Shown here piece after piece: positions 11,675 through 17,714 of a DNA stretch of 64,000 bases. This stretch comes from an uncultured archaeon (GTDB lineage Archaea > Thermoproteota > Nitrososphaeria > Nitrososphaerales > Gagatemarchaeaceae). The DNA is taken from positions 800,001-864,000 of the forward strand of contig CAWFOU010000007.1 in the NCBI GenBank assembly GCA_963817525.1, read 5' to 3'. The notes below the pieces were generated by a model that did not search any database, was not told the DNA's origin, and saw only the letters and a list, made by a program, of their open reading frames with translations. The first letter of the stretch is position 1; every line of letters starts with the position of its first letter. The translations under genes were made by a program, and so were the position numbers.

Positions 11675-13762
11675 TTATTCCGCTGTCGAATATTGCGCGG
11701 TGGCGGTCGACCTGCACTTGGTGCACCTCTCGGTCTTCGCGGGCAATTTTGACCCGCAGTTGCGGCAGAACGACACTATCTTCTCGATCCCGAAGAACTC
11801 GAGCTTGGCAGTCGCGCCCATCGTGAGGTTGTATATCCCGCGCATGTCGAGCGACGTCGCGTCGAGGTAGACCGACAGCCCTGCCGCGGCGCCCTGGCTG
11901 AGCTTCGAGATGTAGCCCATCGTCTCGGCGTTGTTGAGGTCCTCCATCGTCAGCCTGGCTGCCTGCGAGTATCCCCTCTTCTCCAGGCTCTGGAGGTTCG
12001 CCCTGCCATACCTCTCCGAGTCGAGTGCGGCCAGCCTCCCCGCCCCCTCCGCCTCGATGAGCGCTATCCCCAGGCGCTCGCTTTTCCCCGACCTCTCGGC
12101 TGCGGACTGCGCGGCGGTCCCCAGTACCTTCGCGGCGAGCTCCGCCCTGGCGCCGGGGGCTGCGTCCTTGCTCAGGCCGAAGAGGGCCTCGTCGAGCCCC
12201 ACCAGGTTCATCACTAGCGGCATCTCGTCGGAGCTCACGTTGTCCGACCCGAAGCTCAGCGCGGGCAGCAGCCCCTTGTTCATCACCCTCTCCAGGAGGC
12301 GCCTTCGCGTGATCAGCGCGTCCGACGCGACTCCCATGAGCATGGATAGCTTCGCCCTGAAGTACGTCTCGTCCTGGTTCGACTCGTAGGAGAGCCTCGG
12401 GAGGTTGATGCTCAGGTTGTGCAGGACGCTGACGTTGTCGGCCTGGTGGTCCGCCGGGAGGATGTCGAGGTTGATGCCCAGGGAGCTCCTCTTCTGCCCT
12501 GAGGGGAAGAACGCGACCTTCCCGCCGTGAAACGCTATCGCCGCCGCGTCCTTGAGGTAGGAGCTGTCTTCCGACTTGTTCGGTTTCGCCAACAGGAGGC
12601 GGACCTCCGGCCTCGGGACCTGCTCGACGTAGTCCCTGTATGCGTCGAGGGTCGCGGCGAGGGTCTTCTCCATGAGCTCCCGCCCCGCGTCGTCCTTGGC
12701 GTAGATGTCCAGCTGCAGGGTCACCGAAGGCCTCTGGGTGGGCTGGAGCACCGAGGAGACCTGGTCGAAGAACTTGACGAGCGCGTCTGCCACGTCGCGC
12801 TTCGTCCTCGACCTGGTGAACTGCGCGAGGTACTGGAGGAAGTTCCTGTAGACAATCTCCTGGTTCGCCTCCTTCTTGATGAGGGGGGTGATGTTTGAGA
12901 TGACGTTGATGGCCTCCTCCAGGTTCCCGGGGCTCTGGAGCATCGGGACGCCGGGAAGCCTCCCCTTAGGGTTGAACCCCGACGCGCGGACTGAGAGGAG
13001 GTCGAGGAATATCGTGTCGGGGAGGAGCGCCCACGTCCCCGCCTCCGAGATGTGGATGTCCCCGTTGAGGTGGGCGTCAGAGACGTCCCTGGGGAGCTGC
13101 TCGAGGAGGAGGTACTCGGAGAAGACGGACTTGCCCGTCTGGTGCAGCAGGGACTCCGCGTCCCCGCCGTCGCCCCCCGCCTTGGCGAGGAGCTGGGTGA
13201 CGTCGAACACGGGGAGGCCGAGTCGCGTGAGCTTGTGCCTGTACTCCTCGAGGTTCTGCTCGACGAGGAGCGAGTTGACCATCTCCCTGATGAGGGGGGC
13301 GGTCAGGTACTGGGTCTGGAACTTGTAGAGGCGGGACTCCGTCTCGCTGGTGATCTTCTGGGCGAGCTCGACGGGCATCCCCGCCTCCTTGACCAGCGAC
13401 TGGAGGATCTTGTCCGCGTTGAACTCCTCCATGGCCTGGCGGGTAGTCCTGACGTAGAGCTTCCCGCTCTCGATGAGCGACTGCTCCTCTATCTGCCGCG
13501 TGAGGTTGAGGACGAGCCTCCCGAGGTTGGTGACCGTGTACTTGCGCTCCTGCCTGTTGAGCTGGATGAGGAGCTGGCGGACGAGCTTCCTCAGGTGGTA
13601 GGCGAACTTGCCCGACTCCTTCTTCGACTTGAATCCGGCGAGCGACTTTAGCGCGCTGTAGGTGAGAGGGCCCTTGACGTTGAGTATCTTTAGGATCTCC
13701 AGCCTCTGCGGAGAGGCGATGACGCTGTAAATTGTCCTGACACGGCGAGGAGCGGCTTGCAT
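11675..13762 (-). CDS. ArsR-type HTH + ATP-cone + NrdD-like domain protein
   Basis: N-terminal RLEILKIL...AYHLRKL HTH; EEFNADKI...LVKEAG ATP cone; AHLNGDIHI and SINLPRL NrdD-like motifs; ends at CxxC...CxxC without a glycyl-radical motif. Confidence 0.85.
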   Translation of the reverse strand: MQAAPRRVRTIYSVIASPQRLEILKILNVKGPLTYSALKSLAGFKSKKESGKFAYHLRKLVRQLLIQLNRQERKYTVTNLGRLVLNLTRQIEEQSLIESGKLYVRTTRQAMEEFNADKILQSLVKEAGMPVELAQKITSETESRLYKFQTQYLTAPLIREMVNSLLVEQNLEEYRHKLTRLGLPVFDVTQLLAKAGGDGGDAESLLHQTGKSVFSEYLLLEQLPRDVSDAHLNGDIHISEAGTWALLPDTIFLDLLSVRASGFNPKGRLPGVPMLQSPGNLEEAINVISNITPLIKKEANQEIVYRNFLQYLAQFTRSRTKRDVADALVKFFDQVSSVLQPTQRPSVTLQLDIYAKDDAGRELMEKTLAATLDAYRDYVEQVPRPEVRLLLAKPNKSEDSSYLKDAAAIAFHGGKVAFFPSGQKRSSLGINLDILPADHQADNVSVLHNLSINLPRLSYESNQDETYFRAKLSMLMGVASDALITRRRLLERVMNKGLLPALSFGSDNVSSDEMPLVMNLVGLDEALFGLSKDAAPGARAELAAKVLGTAAQSAAERSGKSERLGIALIEAEGAGRLAALDSERYGRANLQSLEKRGYSQAARLTMEDLNNAETMGYISKLSQGAAAGLSVYLDATSLDMRGIYNLTMGATAKLEFFGIEKIVSFCRNCGSKLPAKTERCTKCRSTATAQYSTAE

Positions 13763-13802: not shown

Positions 13803-14154
13803 TCACCGAGAGTCAAATAAAATCCACTCCCTCTGATGGAATGGCCGACGATATCGTAAGATTGGGCATAGTGTAGATTTCGCCCGCAGCACACGATGCT
13901 TACTTGACGAGTTCTTCCTCAGCTTGCTAAATGACCGAAGATTCTCAACCAGCTCCCAGAACTCATCGTAGCTCCTGCCTCTACGATAGACCTGCAAGAG
14001 CTGCTTGACAAGATCACTTTCGATTTCTGCTAGTTCTTCGGCCAGAGCGTTTCTTTCCTCCCGACTTACCAATAATCGCTTCCACCGCTTTCTCCGCTAG
14101 CTTCCGTCGCTCCTCTTTGGACAAGCTGGAAATCTTCTCCTCGTCGCTTAGCAT
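13803..14154 (-). CDS. two overlapping short AT-rich ORFs (14014-14154 and 13803-14072), possibly one frameshifted gene
   Basis: GGAGGAG before ATG at 14154; related motifs SKEERRKLAE and SREERNALAE. Confidence 0.4.
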
Positions 14155-14218: not shown

Positions 14219-14371
14219 TGGTGGGGTCGCCCGGATTTGAACCGGGGGTCTCAAGCGCGCTCGGACTAAGCAAAAGCGATTTTGCCGTAGTCTCCCAAGG
14301 CTTGAAGCCTAGACCAGACTAGCCCCGCGACTCGAGCAGCAGCCCGATTATGCGGCCTAGCCGACGACCCC
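14219..14371 (-). tRNA. tRNA-Pro(UGG) with two introns (15/16, 38 nt; 37/38, 36 nt), CCA encoded
   Basis: GGGGTCG/CGACCCC acceptor stem, CAAGC/GCTTG anticodon stem, TTCAAAT T-loop; canonical BHB at 37/38 (CTTG/CGAG helix, GACTA/TAGTC inner stem); relaxed BHB at 15/16. Confidence 0.92.
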
Positions 14372-14389
14372 CGGCGTCCGCATGGATGG

Positions 14390-14402
14390 TTTTTATTAAA
14401 AC
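14390..14402. promoter_or_regulatory. AT-rich TATA element, likely bidirectional (tRNA-Pro and LAGLIDADG gene)
   Basis: TTTTTATTAAAA about 20-30 nt from the tRNA 5' end and just upstream of the endonuclease ORF. Confidence 0.6.
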
Positions 14403-14416
14403 GATTCTAATCTATC

Positions 14417-14959
14417 GTGCGGGCTGTTTCAATACGCAGTTCCAGAATCGCAATAATGGCCTATCTAATCGGATTATTTGATGGCGAAGGCTGCCTGACA
14501 ATAAACGTCGAGAAAGACAAGAGGAAAGGAGCTATTTCAGAAGTCGGAGCATGGAGAATAATCCCATGCGTCCAATTCACCAATTCGGATAACGCCCTCG
14601 TCTTGGCGATTGACAGAATGCTCAAGACTCTTGGTCAGCATCCCACTATCCAAAGATATCCAAATGGGTCGGCTCACGTTAGACTCTGGCGTGCAAGTGA
14701 AATCGAGGCATTTTGTAGAGAAGCCATGATGTTTTCGAATGGCGCCAAATCGGCGCAGCTCTCCATATTCATCAACAAACTAATCCCCATTTTCGAATCT
14801 CGTCCTCTCATGGGCAAGAGAGGAGGAAGGATTTGGACCACGACGCTGTTTCTCCAAGCAATGACTCTGATAGATGAGATTAATCAATTCAAGAGAAGTC
14901 GAAGGACGGCTCGTCGTTACAGCCGGGCATACTTCGCAGCGCTCTGGAATTTGCAGTAG
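14417..14959 (+). CDS. single-motif LAGLIDADG homing endonuclease
   Basis: YLIGLFDGEGCL motif, VQFTNSD, 180 aa, AT-rich codons. Confidence 0.9.
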   Translation: MRAVSIRSSRIAIMAYLIGLFDGEGCLTINVEKDKRKGAISEVGAWRIIPCVQFTNSDNALVLAIDRMLKTLGQHPTIQRYPNGSAHVRLWRASEIEAFCREAMMFSNGAKSAQLSIFINKLIPIFESRPLMGKRGGRIWTTTLFLQAMTLIDEINQFKRSRRTARRYSRAYFAALWNLQ

Positions 14960-14964
14960 CCTCG

Positions 14965-14981
14965 GACTAGCCGACGACCCC
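14965..14981 (-). repeat. stranded duplicate of tRNA-Pro 5' end
   Basis: Minus strand GGGGTCGTCGGCTAGTC equals nt 1-17 of the spliced tRNA-Pro; lies 5 nt past the LAGLIDADG stop. Confidence 0.9.
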
Positions 14982-15009
14982 TACGCCCCCCTCTCCGCCC
15001 ATTCGTTAG

Positions 15010-15591
15010 TTATGCATTCCTCTTTGAGACGAAGGGACTCCCCTCGACGAAGAAGCGCCACGGCAGCTCCTTCGCCTTGCTTATCCCTATCCTGGCCGAC
15101 GCCTTGACGGGCACGACCCCCTCCTTATCGACGACGTAGATCCTCTTGGAGGTCACCAGGTCCTCACCGTTGAAGCCCCCGTCGATCTCGAGGGCCTGCG
15201 TGAGGTTTCCCGGCCCGTTGGCGAGTCTCTGGAGCTCGGACACGCCTCGGTTTCTCATCATCTTCTCGACCCCCTCCATCGGCTCCAAGGCCCGGATCAA
15301 GATCCCCCCGGGCTCCCCAGGCTTCTCGGCGGTGAAGTTCAGGCACCAGTGGTTCCCGTAGGAGAAGAACATGTAGACGTGCCCGGCCTCCCCGAACATG
15401 ACGGCGCTCCTCTTGGTCGCCCTCCGATACGAGTGGCTCGCCGGGTCGTCGGTGCCCCGATAGGCCTCCGCCTCCACGATCCTCCCCGAGAGCACGCTCC
15501 TCCCCACCCTTCTCACGAGCACGCACCCCAGGAGCTCCCGCGCGACGTCGAGAGTGTATCGAGAGTAGAAGCTACGGCCGAGGCGGTCCAC
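15010..15591 (-). CDS. mpg: 3-methyladenine DNA glycosylase (MPG/AAG family)
   Basis: VARELLG, GRIVEAEAY, DPASHS, YGNHWCLN, GILIRALEP, NGPGNLTQAL, RIGI. Confidence 0.93.
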   Translation of the reverse strand: MDRLGRSFYSRYTLDVARELLGCVLVRRVGRSVLSGRIVEAEAYRGTDDPASHSYRRATKRSAVMFGEAGHVYMFFSYGNHWCLNFTAEKPGEPGGILIRALEPMEGVEKMMRNRGVSELQRLANGPGNLTQALEIDGGFNGEDLVTSKRIYVVDKEGVVPVKASARIGISKAKELPWRFFVEGSPFVSKRNA

Positions 15592-17574: not shown

Positions 17575-17714
17575 TGGTGGGGACGGCCGGACTTGAACCG
17601 ACGGATCACAGGTATCGCCGCTCCGATGGGAAATCATCCACGCAAGCGTGTCATCAAACTTTTTGTCGTTTGACCACTGGAGCCTGTTGCCATGCCTGTC
17701 TAGGCTACGTCCCC
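17575..17714 (-). tRNA. tRNA-Trp(CCA) with about 63-nt intron at 37/38
   Basis: GGGGACG/CGTCCCC acceptor stem, ACAGG-CT-CCA-G...A-CCTGT, TTCAAGT T-loop, ACCA end. Confidence 0.9.

Follow-up and report, generated by a model that had tools for sequence, protein, structure and literature searches.

The tRNA-Pro(UGG) gene and its nuclease cassette

The window analysed here is a stretch of 64,000 nucleotides (nt) from the genome of an uncultured soil archaeon of the family Gagatemarchaeaceae, order Nitrososphaerales; this genome is called G000, and other G numbers denote related genomes. On its minus strand the window contains a gene for tRNA-Pro(UGG), preceded by a gene for a single-motif LAGLIDADG nuclease. 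The nuclease gene is divergent from the tRNA gene (i.e., it lies on the plus strand, antisense to the tRNA), and beyond its stop codon a second copy of the first tRNA exon is found, hereafter called the stub. In order of position, the locus is made up of the following features:

14219..14257, minus strand: exon 3 of the tRNA (nt 38 to the encoded CCA), from the alignment described below
14258..14293, minus strand: intron 2, 36 nt at position 37/38, from the alignment, with a bulge-helix-bulge (BHB) motif read by hand
14294..14318, minus strand: exon 2 (tRNA nt 16-37, anticodon TGG), from the alignment
14319..14356, minus strand: intron 1, 38 nt at position 15/16, from the alignment, with a BHB motif read by hand
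14357..14371, minus strand: exon 1, inner copy (tRNA nt 1-15), from the alignment to the intron-less gene of G006
14372..14416, no strand assigned: putative divergent promoter region with the AT-rich box TTTTTATTAAAA (14390-14401), from position only
14417 (GTG) or 14456 (ATG)..14959, plus strand: single-motif LAGLIDADG gene of the I-CreI type, from Pfam, AlphaFold2 and Foldseek
14958..14966, minus strand: T followed by CCGAGGCT, the likely 5' end of the resident 15/16 intron, which pairs in 7/8 positions with AGTCGCGG
14967..14981, minus strand: the stub, read as the original exon 1 (tRNA nt 1-15), an exact copy of the 15-mer at the place where the complete tRNA of relatives starts
15006..15013, minus strand: ATAACTAA, read as the original TATA-like box of the tRNA gene, from sequence and an equivalent box in relatives
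15010..15591, minus strand: methylpurine-DNA glycosylase gene, the conserved upstream neighbour (Pfam Pur_DNA_glyco, 219 bits)

Read from the sequence, the tRNA-Pro(UGG) gene runs from 14371 to 14219, is 153 nt long and encodes its CCA end. It is the sole tRNA-Pro gene for UGG, and its third exon is the sole tRNA-Pro 3' end within the window. The layout of exons and introns is established because the gene can be aligned to the intron-less gene at the same locus of the relative G006, which is 79 nt long and called tRNA-Pro tgg by ARAGORN; the two are exactly the same, apart from insertions of 38 nt after nt 15 and of 36 nt after nt 37. An earlier reading made from the letters of the window (the sequence-only reading) had proposed the 38-nt intron at 15/16, which the alignment confirms; the second intron, at 37/38 (14293..14258), was missing from it. 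This alignment fixed the exon borders; the BHB motifs were identified manually in the sequence. The motif of intron 1 is relaxed, with central helix GGCU/GGCU, bulges AG|G and AG|U and inner helix CCGC/GCGG, while that of intron 2 is canonical, with central helix CUUG/CGAG, bulges GG|A and CG|C and inner helix GACUA/UAGUC. The two 3-nt bulges, 4 base pairs (bp) apart, are thus in place at the splice sites; the outer helix is absent in intron 1, as it is in the 648-nt intron considered below. Minimum free energy folding and co-folding of the splice regions displayed no BHB motifs, and these results were not used.

The two-intron gene was missed by automated searches. ARAGORN called no tRNA in the window, and at the gathering score the Rfam matches in the window were a 5S rRNA and a tRNA at 17578-17714 only; at the E-value threshold, Rfam recovered positions 9-63 of the tRNA-Pro (20.2 bits, E 0.25). 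The other tRNA gene, at 17578-17714 on the minus strand (137 nt, Rfam 44.7 bits), has a length that implies intron sequence within it. A 9-mer, TAGTCCGAG, is present on the minus strand both at the stub junction (14962-14970) and at the 3' end of intron 2 (about 14263-14271), with 10/14 positions matching around it, and is unexplained.

The sequence GGGGTCGTCGGCTAGTC lies at 14981..14965, 5 nt beyond the nuclease stop codon. A repeat finder places it in a direct repeat of 19 nt, 18/19 identical, between 14353-14371 and 14963-14981, with a spacing of 610. The 19-mer occurs in two copies in the window and in none of 100 shuffles; a chance origin of the repeat is therefore excluded, and in this respect the sequence-only reading, which had pointed to the stub, was right. 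That reading had also made use of the two nucleotides that match the spliced tRNA past the exon junction. The stub matches the spliced tRNA in 18/19 positions and the unspliced gene also in 18/19, and these two nucleotides therefore decide nothing.

A TATA-like element upstream of the stub, likewise predicted earlier, is identified as ATAACTAA; it is centred about 29 nt upstream and overlaps the glycosylase stop codon (15010-15012). In relatives, the order is glycosylase gene, a GCATAACTA box overlapping the glycosylase stop codon, complete tRNA-Pro(UGG) and, downstream, an NrdD-like gene; the glycosylase gene was found upstream of the tRNA in 11/13 related loci by tblastn. The complete tRNA of the relatives starts exactly where the stub of the window starts, and the leader CGTA before +1 is common with G006. 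On this comparison, the stub and its box are the relic of the original 5' end of the tRNA gene, because the complete tRNA of relatives starts there, behind an equivalent box and the glycosylase gene.

The nuclease open reading frame (ORF) encodes a protein of 167 or 180 amino acids, depending on the start codon, and is matched by the Pfam families LAGLIDADG_3 (31 bits, cut-off 22.5) and LAGLIDADG_1 (26.7 bits, cut-off 23.1). It contains the motif LIGLFDGEGC, of which GLFDGEGC is kept in all four homologues that cover it. The AlphaFold2 model (predicted local distance difference test, pLDDT, 85.5) has the alpha-beta-beta-alpha-beta-beta-alpha order with one motif per chain, and the top Foldseek matches are the homodimeric enzymes I-CvuI, I-CreI and I-MsoI and the archaeal I-Vdi141I, with target-normalised template modelling scores of 0.71-0.82 and E values of about 1e-7. 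A PDB search by sequence with the nuclease family was weak (E 0.0095); the fold search settled the identity. As judged from the modelled fold, the ORF encodes a predicted LAGLIDADG homing endonuclease of I-CreI-like fold, confirming the single-motif gene of the sequence-only reading.

The nuclease is rare. Four homologues were found among 5.8 billion proteins; in 301 genomes of the order, it was found in G000 only, where it has one copy, plus two weak matches. Searches of metagenome contigs and of genome contigs with a profile of the nuclease returned no match. A scan with the homologue P0003 (80 loci) gave generic LAGLIDADG matches only, the best full-length ones at 28-29% identity, with higher values confined to the motif stretch.

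Between the inner tRNA start and the nuclease gene, the AT-rich box lies 19-30 nt upstream of the tRNA and was brought by the cassette; the region around it (14372..14416) would be a divergent promoter. The stretch of 593 bp between the stub and the gene is absent in all 40 relatives searched with a 911-nt query, which gave no match to the nuclease gene or the inner promoter either, and the cassette has a G+C content of 46%, compared to 62-66% in the flanks. We take the 593 bp to be a foreign insertion because of this absence and the low G+C content. The locus thus presents a presence/absence polymorphism at a conserved site, with the cassette in G000 and absent from 40/40 relatives. These results agree with the earlier proposal that the cassette brings a copy of the 5' exon and a putative promoter, leaving the stub as a relic.

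Both cassette junctions are crossed without difference by short contigs from public soil runs (X1 records 2 and 4; X2 records 9 and 10; X4 record 21), all from one study, possibly that of the source sample. X1 record 2, a contig of 591 nt, is identical over the nuclease gene and the tRNA (14219-14671) and continues after the tRNA 3' end with 138 nt unlike the window; this is either another cassette context or an assembly-graph chimera at the tRNA repeat.

In the neighbourhood, the NrdD-like protein (11675-13762, minus strand) is 98-100% identical over its first 200 amino acids in five genomes of the genus, and the glycosylase, encoded across the tRNA from it, reaches only 50-71%. A stretch low in G+C separates the NrdD-like gene from the tRNA and contains two small ORFs of 89 and 46 amino acids (13803-14154, minus strand), which only G020 shares among the loci tested (67-70% identity).

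Age of the 15/16 intron

At related loci, introns at 15/16, 29/30 and 37/38 occur in all combinations. A tree of the locus was made from the adjacent glycosylase (12 rows; L009, with a partial gene, and L011, without glycosylase, were left out). It places G000 in a clade with G020, G018, G008, G006 and G022 (support 88/94). The 15/16 intron is present in five of the six members of this closest clade, the intron-less G006 pairing with the three-intron G022 with moderate support (80/82). For a wider count, 41 distinct tRNA-Pro genes were used, a non-random sample in which many loci had been fetched with nuclease queries; an intron of the 15/16 type is present in 10/27 genes without an upstream nuclease and in 8/14 with one.

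The flank of the stub points in the same direction. The 8 nt after the stub bulge, CCGAGGCT, pair in 7/8 positions with AGTCGCGG (14332..14325), just before the terminal GGCTAG of the intron, while CCGCATAA of the inner exon copy pairs with it in only 4/8. Pairing of 7/8 with AGTCGCGG is reached by only 6/579 of the cassette 8-mers, and a helix of 7-8/8 pairs is present in 11/17 distinct 15/16 introns. This fits CCGAGGCT and AGTCGCGG being the two ends of a resident hairpin intron, now 648 nt apart. The intron most likely predates the cassette, because it is found in nuclease-free genes and throughout most of the clade and because the stub flank pairs in 7/8 positions with the intron 3' end. 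In principle, a transcript from the old promoter could be spliced as an intron of 648 nt (14966..14319) with the same 3' splice site, as the sequence-only reading had allowed in its own caveat that the stub might be the 5' side of an older or longer intron.

The central claim of that reading, that the cassette was the source of the intron in an intron-less allele, is not upheld. The cassette is probably not the source of the 15/16 intron and its target was probably not intron-less; for the window alone, the comparisons put the intron down as not created by the cassette. The sequence-only reading had proposed to compare intron and nuclease across relatives, and the outcome is largely the one it had named as speaking against it, an ancestral intron independent of the nuclease. 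A homology of intron 1 with the intron of G309 was considered and dropped, the common ends being those demanded by the splice motif.

It had also been proposed that the intron splits the recognition site of the nuclease. Intron 1 ends in GGCTAG, by which the 18-mer GGCTAGTCTGGTCTAGGC (tRNA 10-24) is contiguous again at the junction of intron and exon 2, and only nt 1-9 are displaced. The D-arm DNA, GGCTAGTC-TG-GTCTAGGC, forms a 6/8 + 6/8 pseudo-palindrome centred at the stub end and would suit a homodimeric enzyme. Splitting of the site is now doubtful, because the intron 3' end rebuilds the D-arm 18-mer beside exon 2; the sequence gives it no support.

Related cassettes at tRNA-Pro and tRNA-Val genes

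The exact 15-mer of exon 1 is present in 87/97 genomes of the family, and in five of the 97 it occurs twice on one strand within 610-1287 nt (G000, G018, G010, G263 and G319). In the other four genomes, the stub ends at approximately nt 31 (G018), nt 29 plus 4 intron nt (G010), nt 35 (G263) and nt 26 (G319) and is followed by a sense-oriented ORF with helix-turn-helix domains and then two LAGLIDADG-like motifs. By sequence, this double-motif ORF stays below the Pfam cut-off and gives E 0.018 in a PDB search; the fold search settled its identity, with a model of pLDDT 79 for which all 50 Foldseek matches listed are LAGLIDADG proteins (E-DreI, I-Tsp061I, I-DmoI and PI-PfuI among them). The ORF runs into the tRNA start, its stop codon in 4/6 copies being the TAG from tRNA nt 13-15, and the TATA box of the tRNA (GAGATAGAGTATAAA) is inside its last codons. 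Between the stub and the new copy, introns are gained in G018 and G319 and lost in G263 and G010; in G263, the anticodon also differs.

Other sites show the same ORF before tRNA-Pro without a stub, in G191, in G196 and in the genome of the window itself, at its tRNA-Pro(CGG) locus:

G000:C7:608113-609400: L028, a frameshifted double-motif ORF directly upstream of a three-intron tRNA-Pro(CGG), no stub

In G017, only the last 50 nt or so of the double-motif cassette remain. When 185,579 species were scanned, each represented by a single genome, nine loci were obtained, of which eight are by title Nitrososphaerales or Thaumarchaeota metagenome-assembled genomes (MAGs); in all eight, tRNA-Pro directly follows the double-motif ORF. 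At a further locus, L074, in a MAG titled Aenigmatarchaeota, a homologue of the ORF (31% identity) has no tRNA-Pro adjoining. The broader protein family is present in 49/301 genomes of the order. Its distant members do not lie at tRNA genes (0 Rfam matches in 18 loci), and ARAGORN called a tRNA in 6/30 loci of the family, five of them loci of the closest relatives.

In G018, the complete tRNA-Pro gene is followed, 1.45 kb further downstream, by a 3' fragment of tRNA-Pro (L075 4800-4830); the interval holds a gene for a serine/threonine-rich protein of about 470 amino acids. The insert of this genome may split the resident tRNA-Pro into two halves.

When G000 was scanned for tRNA-body 14-mers repeated within 3 kb upstream, three matches were obtained: the locus of the window, a tRNA-Leu with a 60-nt 3' repeat, and a tRNA-Val locus with the same architecture as that of the window:

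G000:C1:676300-677500, outside the window: L156, tRNA-Val cassette

Here, a 5' fragment of tRNA-Val(CAC), 45 nt long, has a TTAAAT box of its own. It is overlapped by the 3' end of a single-motif LAGLIDADG gene in antisense orientation, which encodes 242 amino acids with a C-terminal helix-turn-helix (Pfam 24.9 bits). A new putative promoter and a complete tRNA-Val(CAC), whose acceptor stem differs, come next, and the locus also includes a 3' fragment that has decayed. The Val nuclease and that of the window share 28% identity over 40 amino acids and are not close relatives.

The Val site can be followed through several states. It is filled in G022 (91% identity), G006 and G019 and decayed in G012. 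In G018, G020, G014 and G009 it is empty, the resident tRNA being complete; this tRNA is intron-less in the first two genomes and has an intron beside the insertion point in the other two. In G006 and G012, the 5' and 3' halves of the resident gene flank an insert carrying a whole replacement tRNA. The nuclease gene of the Val lineage is broken by stop codons in G022, G019 and G021. Members of this Val lineage, the third one described here, are also found antisense directly upstream of tRNA-Pro(UGG), in G260, G318, G311 and G309; there, the nuclease gene lies upstream of the native CATAACTAC promoter box and there is no stub.

At the tRNA-Leu locus (L157, G000:C7:392010-393513), a complete tRNA-Leu(GAG) is followed, after 1.4 kb, by a 60-nt copy of the tRNA 3' part with one mismatch; the ORFs in between (285 and 124 amino acids) have no Pfam match at E < 0.01. 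These look like the attachment-site borders of a small integrated element.

Mode of insertion and comparison with known systems

With moderate confidence, we favour the view that a selfish LAGLIDADG cassette has settled in the 5' part of the sole tRNA-Pro(UGG) gene, that the 15/16 intron is older, and that this is a habit of such cassettes throughout the family. The comparisons demonstrate how the locus is built, that the cassette was inserted, that the intron position is old and that the arrangement recurs, with sites found empty, filled or decayed; what we infer are the activity of the nuclease, its target, its way of spread and the promoter in use. Along the tRNA strand, the order would be the old promoter, the exon 1 stub with about 9 nt of the start of the old 15/16 intron, the antisense nuclease gene, the AT-rich divergent promoter, exon 1 once more, now followed by a new intron start, and the 3' end of the old intron with the rest of the gene. 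The cassette would thus sit in the older 15/16 intron, or have recombined within it. From what is established for homing endonucleases, the nuclease would cut conserved sequence of the tRNA gene, and the cassette would enter as a copy made during repair of the break, or would travel by recombination across the conserved flanks. Host viability would be secured by the spare promoter and exon or, at other sites, by a whole spare tRNA. The host splicing endonuclease would restore the mature tRNA by removing the 38-nt intron from transcripts of the inner promoter; read-through from the old promoter would in principle give the 648-nt intron with the shared 3' splice site. The nuclease gene would decay later. 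More generally, three unrelated LAGLIDADG lineages at tRNA-Pro and tRNA-Val would bring a promoter plus a replacement 5' part or whole tRNA, leaving the resident gene as a fragment, and these replacements would shift introns between alleles in both directions.

Several observations weigh against this interpretation. The 29/30 intron, present in all other intron-bearing members of the clade, is missing from the window gene, and the introns that this gene does have differ from those of the clade; such a set is better accounted for if the whole gene was replaced than by insertion into a resident intron, and a larger part of the tRNA gene may have been replaced. No resident 3' fragment of tRNA-Pro is present within the window. 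The lineage of the window nuclease has a single observed site. The association of nuclease and intron is not significant (intron-less genes are 0/14 with a nuclease and 4/27 without, in a non-random sample of related genomes). No joint skipping the cassette, and no cassette-free allele of the same species, was seen in the DNA contigs of four runs, which come from one study and leave some bins without cover. Finally, the length of the direct repeat, 19 nt, is within the range of integrase attachment sites in the phylum (PMC6563490).

The best surviving alternative, although unlikely, is a classical intron-borne nuclease: the old promoter, the stub as exon 1, one 648-nt BHB intron (14966..14319) holding the nuclease, and exon 2, with the inner exon copy and the AT-rich box as by-products of a 19-bp duplication at insertion. 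The stub has the central helix and bulge of the inner exon and a better inner helix (7/8 versus 4/8), the native promoter box is intact, and archaeal rRNA introns do hold LAGLIDADG genes (I-Vdi141I and I-Tsp061I are among the structural matches). However, the gene is antisense to the tRNA and hence cannot be expressed from the intron; it lies inside intron borders only if the 648-nt intron is drawn, and then on the strand opposite to its host gene, and is not classed as intron-encoded. An exact exon copy with an AT-rich box at the right distance is improbable as a by-product, and the four other stubs cannot be spliced to the downstream gene despite the equal architecture. To our knowledge, no LAGLIDADG cut gives 19-bp duplications, which also counts against this alternative.

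Ranking below it, and improbable, is the model of the sequence-only reading, in which the target was an intron-less allele and the cassette went in at nt 15-17 together with the 15/16 intron, which split the nuclease site, the two spreading jointly (collaborative homing). The T16 and C17 that follow the stub are as in the intron-less gene, such an allele exists in the clade (G006), and the stubs of G018 and G319 lack the 15/16 intron found in the new copy. The D-arm pseudo-palindrome at the stub end and the deviating introns of the window would also suit it. Against this stand an intron position older than the cassette and independent of any nuclease, a stub flank resembling an intron start, and the D-arm 18-mer restored by GGCTAG; moreover, the stubs of G263 and G010 hold, over the stretch covered, more introns than the copies that replaced them.

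Least probable is the remnant of an integrase-type plasmid or virus, integrated at the tRNA 5' part with the 19-nt repeats as attachment sites, most of it lost and the nuclease a passenger: thaumarchaeal attachment sites are 8-25 bp (median 17) and 39/68 elements are at tRNA genes (PMC6563490), the tRNA-Thr case of Caldiarchaeum has been explained in this way (PMC3293823) and the tRNA-Leu of G000 has its 60-nt 3' repeat 1.4 kb away, but an ORF and Pfam scan found no integrase in or beside the 593 bp, the edge of the insert is within 3-5 nt of the nuclease stop codon, three LAGLIDADG lineages share the architecture without any integrase, and the repeats are at the tRNA 5' part, while thaumarchaeal elements are, in the available text of PMC6563490, at the 3' part in all but one case.

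We return to the favoured view, of a cassette settled in a tRNA gene. More tentatively, and somewhat short of an even call, we propose that these cassettes represent undescribed archaeal mobile elements, homing-endonuclease cassettes that target tRNA genes and are made harmless by a spare promoter and exon, or a spare tRNA, rather than by an intron or intein. If so, cassette turnover would move BHB introns sideways between tRNA alleles, orphan tRNA halves would be produced, a possible source of split tRNA genes, and introns at cut sites would gain protective value. The arrival, movement and persistence of archaeal tRNA introns are open questions, as is the origin of fragmented and split tRNA genes; the available part of a 2026 preprint on Asgard tRNA introns leaves the route of arrival open. 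As regards mechanism, the only precedent is a single locus in Caldiarchaeum, which was attributed to an element of the integrase type (PMC3293823, from its available text). Here, a defined enzyme class is tied to the disruption of tRNA genes, in two tRNA species and with three nuclease lineages, and related genomes show all the stages: empty, filled, with a broken nuclease gene, and relic. Because the enzyme class is defined and all stages are visible, the ideas that mobile elements carry introns and that introns shield tRNA genes are now testable with a cloned nuclease and a few natural alleles.

No description of LAGLIDADG cassettes at archaeal tRNA genes was found in the literature searched, and what is apparently new is their recurrent settlement at tRNA-Pro and tRNA-Val of one Nitrososphaerales family, with gene fragments left behind. 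The LAGLIDADG enzymes of archaeal rRNA introns (I-DmoI, I-Vdi141I, I-Tsp061I) share the fold and the combination of BHB intron and host splicing endonuclease, and a 648-nt intron can be drawn here as well. Their genes are in sense orientation and are not known to have an exon duplication or a promoter of their own for the host gene. In contrast, the locus of the window has a tRNA as host gene and an antisense nuclease gene, and carries both exon 1 and the promoter in duplicate.

In the collaborative homing of phages (Zeng, Bonocora and Shub 2009, as cited in PMC6279837), a free-standing nuclease acts together with a group I intron shown to interrupt its site. As here, the nuclease gene is outside the intron and adjoins the intron-bearing target gene; that system, however, involves a group I intron in a protein-coding gene, whereas the intron of the window rebuilds the flanking sequence and cleavage is only predicted. 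In fungal mitochondria, the available text of PMC6279837 describes copies of the C-terminal part of cob and of atp6, LAGLIDADG ORFs intervening in the case of cob. There too, insertion is accompanied by duplication of one end of the host gene, of which one copy works and the other is a relic, but the ends concerned are the 3' ends of organelle protein genes, while here it is the 5' end or the whole of an archaeal tRNA gene, with its promoter.

The integrated elements of Thaumarchaeota (Krupovic et al. 2019, PMC6563490) also target tRNA genes and have short direct repeats of tRNA sequence at their borders. They carry integrases, and the available text of that paper has no occurrence of "LAGLIDADG" or "homing endonuclease".

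The closest parallel in layout that we can draw is tRNA-Thr(GGU) of Caldiarchaeum subterraneum (Sugahara et al. 2012, PMC3293823, from its available text), with a 5' fragment and a 1.87-kb insert whose ORF adjoins a complete tRNA carrying one additional intron. This ORF, of 271 amino acids, was assigned as a putative recombinase by SVMProt alone; the authors proposed a mechanism of the integrase type, in which a mobile element brings the intron and scatters the fragment. As at the locus of the window, a 5' fragment remains under the old upstream region, an ORF is inserted, and the complete tRNA differs in its introns; unlike there, the ORFs described here are LAGLIDADG genes, from three lineages and at two tRNA species, with empty, filled and decayed sites.

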